Shown in pieces: positions 34,201 through 37,200 of a stretch of 46,161 bases of DNA. This DNA comes from a plasmid. Position numbers: made by a program. Location of the stretch: assembly GCF_054482595.1 (NCBI RefSeq), contig NZ_JBTHVH010000006.1. The stretch is one strand, 5' to 3'. Numbering within the stretch: position 1 is the stretch's first letter; the number at the start of each line of letters is the position of its first letter.

Positions 34201-37200
34201 TGGTGTGTCGCCTTCCATGCCCTGCCGGGCATCATGGAGCCAGCGGCGGAGGTTACTCATTCTTTCCCGGTTTGCCCGGCTGGGACTTTTTCCCCTGTTA
34301 CCGCTTAGTATACTCCAGACTCTTAACCCGGCCTCGTTAGTCCAGTGCAATACAATTTCCCCTTTGCTGTTAAATCCCAGCGAAAACCGGACAGCTCCCC
34401 GCCTCTGTTCTGCACTGATAAAATCTAAAAACTCCTGTTTTTTCATAGCACCTCCTGTTTTTCTATCAGTGCTTTTGTTTCTTTCTTTTCCAGGGCTTTT
34501 CTGAGTAATGCCATGTACTCAGGAAAAGCAGAGAATGGCATCAAGGGAAAAACCGGACGCCCACCCTTTTCAACAGTCTGTATTGCTGATAACATGCGTT
34601 CCGACATTTTATATTCCTCGCGAGGGAATTGAGTGTCACGGTATCAGGTTGCCTCCACAACCTGATACCACCCCTAATTGATTAACTCCGCAGTTCTCTT
34701 ATCGCTTCATTTTTGGCTTCCTCCAGTTCTTTAAGGGTATATGCGAAATTCTTCCAGTTAATTACTTCGTTTATAACCTCAGATTTACTTAAACCACACT
34801 CATTAAACCAAAAGTTAATATTTTTCTTGAGGGAATTTTTCGCCGTCAGTTCCTCGGACAACAATTCACTAACAGACGTGATAACATAACCACGACCGCG
34901 ATTTTTATCTTCGAAAGAATGAACGGCAAGGAAGAGAGTTTCTGAATGGACAAAAGCAGAGCAGGTGATTTTTTCTTTCTTAGTGTTTAAAGCCTGGAAA
35001 GTGATAACATACGTGTTCATTTTAGTCTCCCGCCCGTTTGGGCTACTGGATCATGGTAAGGAACTATTCCCGACCTACAAATAAATTATACCATCATATG
35101 ATGGTAATGCAATTTATTTAGTCACTTTATCCTGATTTTTTTCTCTCTTAACGAGCTGGTAATCTGGATGTTCATCAGCCAGGAGCAAAAGTAATTCATA
35201 CGTACCAGCGGCTAAACCACGAGACGTTTTACCGGATGTTTCTTTGGCTTGCCAGGCTGATAACGTAAAACCAAACCGTTCAGCGGCTTCCTGCTGCGTA
35301 AAGCCAGCTTTAATACGTGCTTGTTTCACCTCTTCAGGTGTTGGCTTAAAACTCATGATTTTGTACCTTCACAATAGTATCTGTATAGAATTTCAATAAA
35401 ATTGGATCATCAATTTCATCTTTAACGTTCGAGAATTCTTCGTAATAAAATGATTTTTGGAAAACAATCTTTTTAGTTGTTTTTTTATCCGCTTCTTTAG
35501 AGCGTACCTTCATCAGTTTTTCAAGTTCAATAAACAAACGTGTTGCATCTTCAGACACAACAATCCTGTATGTTACATTACCTTTGTTTTTCCTGTCGCT
35601 CAGGACTTCATTCATTTTTTGCCTCATAGCTGTTTAATAAACCCCGCTACCTTTATGAGCTGATCTACACTCAGGCCACGAATTACCATTTCATATCCGT
35701 CGCCCCGTTCTGATACGTTACCATCTAACCCATTCTCAACTTTAAACCCGGTCAATGTCCCATGCCAGCTTTCAAGATGCACTAAACGAGATAGCATTCC
35801 TTTCAGGATCAGTTTTTTCTCGCGTTTTTGCTGTAACTGTTGTTCATACTCTCGCGCCATATCTACATTATCTAAAGCATCCGACAGGATTTTCTTTTCA
35901 ATATCGGCGGCGATTTCTACAGGGTTACGCTCTGGCGATACTGTGCAAGTATGGTAAGGACTTCTCCAGCTGCGACTATCTACGCTTCCAATGATAACTA
36001 ACCTTCCTTTCTCCATTCGAATATGTATAGAGTAATTTTTAAAATCAGGTGAGGTTAGCTTAATCCTGTACTGGCAATCATCGAGCAGATTTACACGCCA
36101 GCCGTTCCCCAGGATTCGACAAACGATTTCAAACACCGGTTTATACCGTTCAAAGAAATTTTTCTGTTCTTTCATCGATTCAGCCTTTTGAACTCAATAA
36201 AAAAGCCGTAAATCGAATTACGGCAGTTTTAAGACTATTCATCAAAGTGTCCATCATCACTTGCAGCTTCCTGGGCTTCGCATTCCTGCTGATATGCTTC
36301 TTCCTTCGCAAAAAGATGCGCCCATCCTTCTGCGTTTAAGCCACGGTGCAAGACTGAACCATTTTCATTGCATTCTTTGGCTGTAACTTCGATCTCATCC
36401 GGGCAAATGTAGGCTCCGTAACTTTCAAAAATGTTTATCAGCTCCGCTTCCGTTATGGTCTTGTTTTTCATCAACGTGTCTCCGAATCAATCTTTGCCAT
36501 GTTCTAGGGGGCTTTCGCCCCCATTCCGGTTATGCGCTTGCTTCTACACGTGTCCAGCCTGACGCCTTACGTTTACCCGCTGTACCATACATTTCACGAA
36601 TTTCTTCAATGCTGTGTTCTTTACGGTTCCAGCGGCTTTTGTGTTCTTCAGGACGGTAAAACCATTGTTTTTTCTTAGATGCCCACTTACAGCCCATTTC
36701 CTTTAAAATGTCTTTGTGTTCTTTAGTTTCTCCGCTAATCCAGACCCAATTACCAATAACTTCATAGACAATCCCTGTAAGGCCGGAAAGCGTATTCAGA
36801 ACTTTTTCCAGATCTTCACCGTAGTTGTAACGTGCGTTTTCATCAGTGCTTTGAAACTGATTGATTTTATCAATGTTAGCCATGAGAAAATCAAACGCAG
36901 CATTTACTGCTTTCATCAGCTCGGCACCCAATGGATTGCGGTCTGGATGATATTTTAAAGCCGCTTTTTTGTATGCCGCCTTGATGTCCTTTTCAGTCAG
37001 ATCACCGGATAAACCAAAAACGTTTAATGCTTCCTGAATATTCATTTTTCGCTCCCGCCCGTGTGGGCTTCTGGAATCTGGCAGGGAACCATTCCCAACC
37101 AACAAATTCATTATACCATCAAATGATGGTTATGGAATCATTTTTAATGCTTTACATTGTAAAGATTACATAAAGATGTATATTGCTTTACCGCGCATGA

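Follow-up and report, generated by a model that had tools for sequence, protein, structure and literature searches.

Why does a conjugative plasmid place the same short regulatory segment in front of two different genes, and what might control it there? The question arises in the window studied here, the whole of a 46,161-bp stretch that represents a complete blaNDM-5 IncX3 plasmid, the tested 4 kb of which are 100% identical to many records of the same length. A first-pass annotation had pointed to two related 93-nt segments, here called cassette 1 and cassette 2, which precede the genes of a 112-amino-acid (aa) protein and of a J-domain protein; it regarded them as a duplicated regulatory module with the operator of a dimeric repressor and named the adjacent XRE-family gene as the candidate. 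This view is supported by the recurrence of the module, by the manner in which the operator is tracked by the recognition helix of the XRE protein, and by the fold of that protein. We consider it likely, with a probability of about three in four, that the two cassettes are portable early-gene units of an autorepressed regulon that would be subject to zygotic induction, and that the XRE protein is its repressor. Read along the minus strand, the locus starts with cassette 2, continues through the J-domain gene, the genes for a 79-aa, a 183-aa and an 89/93-aa protein and the XRE gene, and then proceeds via cassette 1, the 112-aa gene, a 54-aa open reading frame (ORF), virBR, a terminator and the nick region of an origin of transfer (oriT) to taxA and taxC. 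The cassettes, their parts and the genes directly behind them are the following.

35021-35113, minus strand: cassette 1, promoter/operator/leader unit before the 112-aa gene, top match of the cassette profiles
37046-37138, minus strand: cassette 2, promoter/operator/leader unit before the J-domain gene, a gapless repeat of cassette 1
35107-35112, minus strand: weak -35 of cassette 1, TTGCAT, 16 nt from the -10 (cassette 2: TTCCAT, 37132-37137)
35085-35093, minus strand: extended -10, TGgTATAAT (equivalent in cassette 2: 37110-37118)
35089-35106: operator 1, perfect 18-bp palindrome TACCATCA-ta-TGATGGTA, which occupies the spacer and includes the first two bases of the -10
37114-37131: operator 2, aACCATCA-tt-TGATGGTA
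35055-35075, minus strand: leader stem-loop 1, close to the 5' end predicted for the mRNA, folded by RNAfold in nearly all cassettes (cassette 2: 37080-37100)
35032-35043, minus strand: leader stem-loop 2, GCCC-AAAC-GGGC, which abuts the GGGAG Shine-Dalgarno (SD) sequence and ends 1 nt before its GGAG core (cassette 2: 37057-37068)
35027-35031, minus strand: SD of cassette 1, GGGAG, whose GGA can pair with an upstream UCC (35048-35050) around stem-loop 2
34682-35020, minus strand: 112-aa gene, first behind cassette 1, with homologues behind cassettes in loci L001, L008 and L009
36530-37045, minus strand: gene for the J-domain protein (171 aa, Pfam DnaJ 7e-11), first after cassette 2

Anatomy and recurrence of the cassettes

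The alignment of 35021-35113 with 37046-37138 is gapless and, just as first counted, retains 75 invariant columns out of 93 (MAFFT). At the same offset, identity collapses to 18-28% in the flanks (13/60 and 10/55 positions downstream, 17/60 and 13/60 upstream), which implies that the boundaries of the cassettes are sharp; beyond the 93 nt, a shared ATGAA start adds five matches out of five. Among the dispersed repeats that a search of the plasmid listed, the cassette pair (98 nt, 82%) is the longest if the pir iterons are set aside.

Both copies carry the TATAAT hexamer of the original description (35085-35090 and 37110-37115), which lies 64 nt rather than 65 nt upstream of the ATG. In every cassette examined, the -10 hexamer is found 52-76 nt before the ATG, and the TTG of the -35 is kept in 15 of 16 X3-type cassettes. 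A scan for consensus promoters (at least 4/6 matches per hexamer) missed both copies, because the -35 is weak and the promoter relies on the extended -10. The palindrome across spacer and -10 had been given a length of 16 bp; it is indeed there, but extends over 18 bp in the first copy (TACCATCATATGATGGTA, 35089-35106). With up to three mismatches allowed, ACCATCATATGATGGT occurs only at 35090-35105 (no mismatch) and 37115-37130 (one mismatch), against 0.16 occurrences expected by chance. The arms of the operator, CCATCA/TGATGG, are invariant in 16 distinct X3-type cassettes, and the two central bases vary. Given the normal 16-nt spacer and the overlap with a consensus extended -10, the operator is placed as a site for repression would be, not one for activation. 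The listed ORF 36530-37111 begins inside the -10 of cassette 2 and, as had been suspected, wrongly translates the cassette: homologues are annotated as 516-bp genes that start with MNIQEALN, corresponding to position 37045 here, to which we have corrected the start of the J-domain gene.

How far does this arrangement extend beyond the window? An iterated nhmmer profile located the cassette 49 times in 27 sequences; each copy immediately precedes a start codon, and a plasmid usually has two to four. These sequences comprise the window and related plasmid loci (IncX1/X3/X4/X5, IncI2 and IncL/M; designated by L numbers), of which 21, from other Enterobacterales species, were gathered via the conserved J-domain protein, the XRE alignment being too divergent to serve as a handle. 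The first-pass annotation had suggested a search of other IncX plasmids, and further copies are present in IncX1, IncX4 and IncX5; these plasmids, a 36-kb IncX-like plasmid and IncI2 each hold the cassette two or three times, with the order of parts and the spacing to the ATG unchanged. X3-type cassettes occur at 2288 places in 1128 plasmids of PLSDB, about two per plasmid, and a search of the window by a covariance model, for which 16 distinct X3-type cassettes were used, located two copies and no others; the E-values of the model are rough owing to a shortened calibration. What stands behind the cassettes varies (the J-domain protein, homologues of the 112-aa protein, a 109-aa family and a 101-107-aa family). 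The J protein itself has 18 full-length matches from other species at 72-99% identity and two more at 62-68%, usually with a cassette in front. Neither the cassettes nor the operators were found described in a literature search, which included the operator sequences.

Downstream of the promoter, each cassette specifies a leader of about 58 nt with two stem-loops. The first is the small conserved hairpin noted earlier, which is present and extends to GGTcGGGAA-TAG-TTCCTtACC (35055-35075); in the model-fitted alignment six of its eight pairs have changed on both sides, and even inside the X3 group G-C, A-U and G-U pairs are swapped. The second, the previously described GCCC-N4-GGGC element at 35032-35043 with GGGAG immediately after it, was detected by script in 46 of 47 distinct cassettes, always as a GC-rich stem of 4-5 bp with a loop of 3-6 nt; of these 46, 44 leave 1 nt between the hairpin and the SD core, one leaves 0 nt and one leaves 3 nt. 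On inspection, the remaining cassette (L017), whose SD the script had misread, reads GGCC-AAGA-GGCC-A-GGAG. Seven types of stem occur in this second hairpin with compensatory changes, including GCCC/GGGC, GGCC/GGCC, GTCC/GGAC and AGCC/GGCT. In RNAfold structures, the GGA of the SD is additionally paired, around stem-loop 2, with a UCC or CUUCC further upstream; the X3 group shows no variation in the TCCAG block, and the UCC/SD helix is 93.5% paired in the alignment with zero double changes.

In the broad covariation alignment, which was fitted to the structure model and is hence biased towards it, 95.8% of cells pair as compared with 83% in shuffles, and double-sided changes affect 56 cells against 15 expected. 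Compensatory change is seen in 8 of 15 leader pairs, and structures slid by 1-3 columns fare far worse. G-U pairs and A-C mismatches number 29 and 9, respectively, an excess of G-U which speaks for a structure in the mRNA rather than in the complementary strand. We infer that stem-loop 1 serves as a 5' stabiliser, and that stem-loop 2 together with the anti-SD sets or modulates ribosome access.

The candidate repressor and the operators

Which protein might read the operators? The genes that bear on this question lie between the two cassettes.

35114-35356, minus strand: 80-aa XRE/Cro-type helix-turn-helix (HTH) protein, the candidate repressor
35346-36474, minus strand: genes for the 79-aa, 183-aa and 89/93-aa proteins, between the J gene and the XRE gene

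The XRE gene is the last of the array that starts at cassette 2, and it has the same position in IncI2, where no terminator intervenes. Its end adjoins the palindrome of cassette 1, as had been remarked, at a distance of 7-8 nt rather than 9 nt (stop codon 35114-35116), and in 12 loci or more the end of the gene and the next cassette lie no more than a few bases apart. The synteny of the genes for the 183-aa, the ~90-aa and the XRE protein is kept in IncX4, IncX5, IncI2 and L017, with a more divergent HTH gene in the XRE position of L017; no counterpart of the 79-aa gene is annotated in the loci of IncX4, IncX5 and IncI2. By tblastn, relatives of the XRE protein were found in 3926 PLSDB plasmids, with identities of 59% (IncX1), 49% (IncX4), 48% (IncI2) and 39% (IncL/M) in those sampled.

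All cassettes of a plasmid have one operator in common, located between -35 and -10, with L026 as the sole exception. Between plasmids the sequence of the operator differs completely, both half-sites changing together and the position being kept; examples are ACCATCAnnTGATGGT, ACCTGCAaaTGCAGGT, CGCTCAnnTGAGCG, TACTGACn4GTCAGTA, ACACGTTATAACGTGT, ATACATCTAaaTAGATGTAT, ATACGACn6GTCGTAT and AGTACCn6GGTACT. Each of ten operator classes pairs with an XRE recognition helix of its own (e.g., GFTLSAWQAKE, GYQLNSWQMKE, GMALRTWQQKE, GVGLSTWQKKE), and the operator is palindromic in those plasmids whose XRE protein has a single domain. From this correspondence we predict that the XRE protein would bind the palindromic operator as a dimer.

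Conceivably, the palindromes might instead be operators of another protein, such as a different product of the region, VirBR, HppX3 or a host factor, with the XRE protein regulating something else. Several small proteins of unassigned function are indeed encoded alongside, and a second family of palindromes, CTTTACAnTGTAAAG, upstream of cassette 2 shows that other regulators act in the region. Moreover, EcaR, a possibly related XRE regulator of IncI2 and IncX4 mcr-1 plasmids, has been reported to activate the chromosomal promoter PwecE (PMC12612032). EcaR may be the IncI2 member of the XRE family (L003 5001-5243), the published fragment having 252 bp and this gene 243 bp; the IncI2-type operator is absent from wecD-wecE of E. 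coli K-12, where the best match has 8/20 mismatches, as in shuffles. However, the other products of the region make poor candidates for the reader of these operators. Across the operator classes the neighbouring J protein keeps 72-87% identity, and most database homologues of the 89-aa protein share ~80-93% identity with it; both are too conserved to account for ten or more specificities, and the latter has a beta-sheet fold without an HTH. The published targets of VirBR and HppX3 are of a different kind, and it is the XRE recognition helix alone that changes class for class with the operator. A reader other than the XRE protein is therefore improbable in our view.

The only relative for which both a confirmed family link and experimental data exist is found in pOXA-48. 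There, tblastn identifies a homologue of 39% identity and 159 aa, a tandem double HTH protein of which both halves match the XRE profile, and the synteny parA-parB-nuc-orf19-orf20 identifies it as Orf20/DNDJGHEP_0014. The pOXA-48-type locus (L004) has the same shared-operator cassette arrangement, with cassettes at 4418, 5936 and 10195 and Orf20 at 4989-5468; one of the three cassettes lies upstream of orf19-orf20, and all of them carry a common spacer, TTGATTTATATGGCTCATT(A/C)G(A/T)CGTAT(A/T)AT, which, in contrast to the operators of the window, is not palindromic. A general rule that a tandem double HTH goes with a non-palindromic operator has to be rejected, since in L023, whose homologue is likewise a tandem, the four cassettes hold a short palindrome, ACATC-N4-GATGT; the pairing is backed by pOXA-48 only. 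Orf20 could be deleted only when it was supplied in trans, and its silencing destabilised the plasmid, in studies that give its function as unknown and leave its targets unidentified (PMC12365149, PMC12361523). Such behaviour is expected of a repressor whose targets cause harm when derepressed. We regard the three pOXA-48 cassettes as candidate targets of Orf20 and expect its sites to be copies of TTGATTTATATGGCTCATTAGACGTATAAT. Loss of the repressor would then release several strong promoters at once, a possible explanation of why Orf20 resists deletion.

These comparisons also bear on a reading in which no protein is needed: the palindromes might act as nucleic-acid hairpins (a terminator, a hairpin of the transferred strand or a recombination site), the repeat being a duplicated constitutive promoter. 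In keeping with this, a terminator scan lists 35089-35106 as a weak hairpin with a T-rich tail, cassette 1 comes directly after the stop codon of the XRE gene, and the differing cargo behind the cassettes is compatible with recombination at them. Yet upstream of cassette 2 there is no gene to terminate, the stems are AT-rich (three GC pairs), and two observations would go unexplained, namely the arms that are invariant within a group alongside a changing protein helix, and the conserved non-palindromic sequence which pOXA-48 has at the same place. We give this reading very little credence.

Is the XRE protein built like a repressor? Its copies in the databases are all named 'hypothetical protein', and none has a precomputed Pfam domain. 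It has a PHROGs match to 'transcriptional repressor' (1.8e-5), and a profile of seven homologues, compared with PDB sequences, finds the HTH domain of MqsA (1e-4), Aca10 (2e-4), Aca3 (2e-3) and 434 Cro (0.05). The AlphaFold2 (AF2) model comprises four helices (7-17, 21-27, 32-39 and 50-59) in a bundle that resembles the solved HTH members of the XRE/Cro-C1 group. Among its nearest neighbours in Foldseek are Aca1 on palindromic DNA (template modelling (TM) score 0.63-0.74), the C-terminal domain of MqsA, and Aca10 (TM 0.80 on the target), followed by HipB, the restriction-modification controller protein C.Esp1396I, 434 Cro and SinR; TM scores range from 0.5 to 0.8, and probabilities are close to 1.0 at the top and at least 0.95 for all those named.

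Some of these matches raise the possibility of a toxin-first type II pair, with the XRE protein as antitoxin to the product of the overlapping 89-aa gene and the palindrome as the operator of that pair. Such a pair would also explain why the essential orf20 of pOXA-48 could not be deleted; it is suggested by weak matches to MqsA antitoxin models (Pfam 1.1e-3, NCBIfam 5e-4), by the presence of HipB among the fold matches, and by the overlap of the 89/93-aa gene with the XRE start. The MqsA match is confined to the HTH domain, however, and the zinc domain that binds the toxin is absent. Furthermore, the operator precedes two to four unrelated cargo operons per plasmid rather than just its own, and deletion of pOXA-48 orf19 had no phenotype. 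The 89-aa protein (35349-35615, minus strand) has no family annotation anywhere; its model (predicted local distance difference test (pLDDT) 90) shows four beta-strands followed by two helices, its only fold matches are weak ones to single-strand DNA binders of the PC4/Pur-alpha type (E 0.086 or worse), and it lacks both a toxin family match (Pfam, NCBIfam, PHROGs) and a toxin-like fold neighbour. An antitoxin role of the XRE protein thus appears very unlikely.

A last alternative concerns the sign of regulation: the XRE protein might bind the spacer and activate the promoters in the manner of MerR. The location of the site between -35 and -10, the poor -35 and the description of EcaR as an activator (PMC12612032) would fit, but the spacer measures 16 nt instead of the over-long 19 nt of MerR-type promoters, and a consensus -10 with an extended TG should need no activator. 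Aca1, Aca10, MqsA and Cro are repressors, though C-proteins can do both, and loss of the pOXA-48 homologue is harmful, as predicted for a repressor. Activation consequently has hardly any credibility here, and we return below to the XRE protein as a repressor.

Entry into a recipient and the virBR circuit

Under what circumstances would a repressor of this kind let its promoters fire? A possible answer lies in the position of the cassettes relative to oriT and virBR, for which the following features are relevant.

33927-33947, plus strand: oriT nick region 1, TTTGCCCTATCCTG/CATCGCA
39952-39972, minus strand: oriT nick region 2, an identical inverted copy
34145-34162, minus strand: intrinsic terminator with a GC stem and U7, directly after virBR and before oriT (z -3.3)
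34189-34446, minus strand: virBR, 85 aa, last gene of the array behind cassette 1, which fits the published description
34443-34607, minus strand: 54-aa ORF, whose stop codon overlaps the virBR start (ATGA)
34626-34680, minus strand: 14-bp stem, perfect and lacking a U tract, which follows the 112-aa gene and precedes the 54-aa ORF (z -2.8)
36205-36224, minus strand: terminator-like hairpin with U6, between the 79-aa and 183-aa genes and thus upstream of the XRE gene

The two oriT copies bracket the cassette region, the iterons, pir and bis, and the same pair is found in IncX1, L007, L009 and L016. Beside taxA, the nick motif and an upstream inverted repeat are kept in IncX1, IncX4 and IncX5; the YATCCTG/Y core of the motif resembles what we take to be the RP4-type nick consensus. 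The presence of two oriT has been stated for this plasmid (PMC11915502). Because the 6 kb between the copies hold both cassettes and the replicon, this part of the plasmid enters the recipient first, as a leading region, from whichever copy transfer starts. From the oriT on the taxA side, transfer runs into virBR, then the XRE gene and then the J gene, such that the transferred plus strand is the template, which is the typical orientation of leading-region genes (PMC11541004).

The 85-aa gene can be identified as virBR by its length of 258 bp, its ribosome-binding site AGGAGG, and arginines at positions 20, 42 and 67, as described (PMC11214620). VirBR activates the promoter PactX and the type IV secretion system (T4SS) by displacing the H-NS-like protein HppX3 (PMC11915502). 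Since the virBR start overlaps the stop codon of the 54-aa ORF, any promoter of virBR's own would have to sit inside that ORF; by virtue of the ATGA overlap the two are probably coupled in translation. The only clear terminator behind cassette 1 is the one after virBR, and we infer that transcription from cassette 1 may continue through to virBR. In R6K, a peak of rifampicin-trapped RNA polymerase was located 'upstream from virBR' (PMC13250579).

We envision a scenario whereby each cassette combines a promoter that would be strong by virtue of its extended -10, a palindromic operator in the spacer and a structured leader before a strong SD. In an established host, dimers of the XRE protein (35114-35356) on the palindromes would occlude RNA polymerase, and both units would be held low. 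Upon conjugation the cassettes, located between the inverted oriT copies, would be among the first DNA to arrive in the recipient, where the lack of repressor would permit a burst of expression from both units (zygotic induction) that is shut off as the repressor builds up. As cassette 1 heads the 112-aa gene, the 54-aa ORF and virBR, the burst would include VirBR, which in turn would counter-silence HppX3 at PactX and switch on the T4SS. An elaboration of this scheme, which we find rather doubtful, is that of a timer, in which the XRE protein and the cassettes would constitute the missing top layer of IncX3 conjugation control: unrepressed cassette 1 would give a pulse of VirBR and thereby, through relief of HppX3 silencing at PactX, transiently high donors until the XRE protein shuts the system down. 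In the same elaboration the protein family, to which the essential Orf20 of pOXA-48 belongs, would have diverged into many private repressor/operator pairs comparable to the immunity groups of phages, which would keep co-resident plasmids from silencing each other's entry programmes, and the leader would add a post-transcriptional layer.

Several points weigh against the regulon as proposed. Beyond the anatomy of the locus, everything derives from the comparison of sequences. The link between operator and recognition helix, spread over about ten independent classes, could partly reflect shared ancestry or hitch-hiking of neighbours. Curated HTH models score the XRE protein below their cut-offs (HTH_31, 19.0 versus 27 bits; HTH_3, 17.5 versus 23 bits; HTH_19, 14.4 versus 30.2 bits), and its AF2 model, with a pLDDT of 72, is of moderate confidence only. 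The leaders of the window fold no better than shuffled sequence (z -0.95 and -1.15), for which reason the case for the leader hairpins rests on covariation. On L026 (Pantoea stewartii p4; cassettes at 2245, 3532 and 5894), two cassettes are of the ACCTGCA type with a matching XRE gene, and the third is of the ACCATCA type, stands before a truncated J gene of 81 aa and has no matching XRE gene; this odd cassette looks like a relic of recombination between cassette-bearing plasmids. The 36205-36224 hairpin lies between cassette 2 and the XRE gene, so that simple autoregulation of the XRE protein from cassette 2 is not assured; a scan of the IncI2 locus found no counterpart of this hairpin. Similarly, the very stable hairpin at 34626-34680 separates the 112-aa gene from the ORFs that lead to virBR; it might control the amount of transcription that arrives at virBR, as an attenuator or as an element for processing or stabilisation. 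A predicted promoter and a transcription start have been drawn upstream of virBR (PMC11214620), and HppX3 silences virBR as well (PMC11915502). Finally, in a deletion screen of hypothetical IncX3 genes, transfer changed less than 12-fold except for prfaH and hns, the inclusion of the XRE gene being unstated (PMC11880322).

Known systems and neighbouring elements

The kind of system proposed here, a global plasmid repressor together with repeated promoter/operator units in the leading region, is already known, and we rate the XRE/cassette system as a further member of it. In IncP the Kor repressors, and in the IncW plasmid R388 ArdK and StbA, exert negative feedback with a transcriptional overshoot on transfer. 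They share with the present case one plasmid repressor that would act on identical operators at several promoters and an expected overshoot in a new host, but they belong to other protein families and use other operators; moreover, operator specificity in the cassette family diversifies fast among close relatives.

Nearest in function is the regulon of the conserved upstream (CUP) elements and ArdK/ArdR in the leading region of IncN plasmids. Repeated promoter/operator elements before several leading-region genes are common to both systems; ArdK is a protein of the TrfB/KorA family, unlike the XRE protein, and to our knowledge no CUP counterpart of the two covarying leader stem-loops has been described. 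Homology was rejected on both counts: in R46 the nhmmer cassette profile gives E-values of 5 or more and the covariance model finds nothing at E <=1, and the R46 profile search with the XRE protein finds neither ArdK nor ArdR, the best blastp hit having an E-value of 0.17 over 13 residues. For pKM101/R46, the work of Delver and Belogurov (1997), as cited in PMC6289460, is summarised there as describing a repeated element of promoter and repressor site before leading-region genes. The same summary has the repressor also control its own gene and considers a burst of expression on entry into a new host likely.

Closest in structure to the XRE protein are Aca1 and Aca10, and there is a resemblance of design as well: a small HTH gene ends an operon that it presumably represses, with the operator over a strong promoter. 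The typical Aca configuration, in which the HTH gene closes an operon whose promoter contains inverted repeats, is found here, with a hairpin intervening in the window. The logic would also be alike, in that genes needed on entry and harmful later are expressed in an early burst and then shut off. It differs in that several dispersed promoters, not one, would be under control, and similarity of sequence is marginal (profile E 2e-4 to 2e-3). Searches of Pfam, NCBIfam and PHROGs, none of them a dedicated anti-defence library, gave the cargo proteins no known anti-CRISPR, anti-defence or other informative match apart from the J domain, and no family match for the 112-aa protein.

Frpo/ssi elements, which are several hundred nucleotides long, have in common with the cassettes a position in the leading region and the use of the transferred strand as template, but the cassette is an ordinary duplex promoter within 93 bp. 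Those of F-like and I-type leading regions are said to act via a DNA secondary structure that mimics double-stranded DNA (PMC11541004). A single-strand promoter like Frpo is not supported here, as the leaders and an upstream GC-rich element fold no better than shuffles.

What would follow from the proposed regulon? The gene blaNDM-5 travels mainly on IncX3 plasmids, mcr-1 is found on IncX4 and IncI2, and blaOXA-48 on IncL; the cassette/XRE design is present in all four. The published IncX3 circuit (HppX3, VirBR, ActX/PrfaH) is silent on what sets the levels of VirBR, to which the cassette model offers a testable answer. In addition, the family offers a natural set of ten or more compact repressor/operator pairs on a common promoter scaffold, with a predicted mutual specificity.

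Some further elements of the locus may be recorded. An Rfam search of 33000-38400 gave nothing beyond a chance match of the 34626-34680 hairpin to mir-196. The palindrome family CTTTACAnTGTAAAG has six matches in the window against 0.14 expected. One copy (37149-37165) lies just upstream of the -35 of cassette 2; four (41605-41621, 42322-42338, 42421-42437 and 42468-42484) flank the gene of a ParA-type ATPase (41646-42308), and the sixth, at 16894, is the weakest. Similar motifs occur upstream of cassettes in L001, L009 and L010 and near the MipZ/ParA gene of IncI2. These sites look like operators of a partition operon or centromere sites, which would place cassette 2 under an additional regulator.

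Upstream of cassettes there is also a conserved GC-rich element, about 330 nt in length (37185-37520 in the window; 1690-2030 in L005; 2400-2760 and 3270-3490 in L003). It has no Rfam match, and its folding is no better than that of shuffles on either strand. Mostly unannotated, it is present once in the window, twice in IncX4 and three to five times in IncI2, and in 1186 plasmids altogether; one possibility is that it represents a single-strand initiation site.

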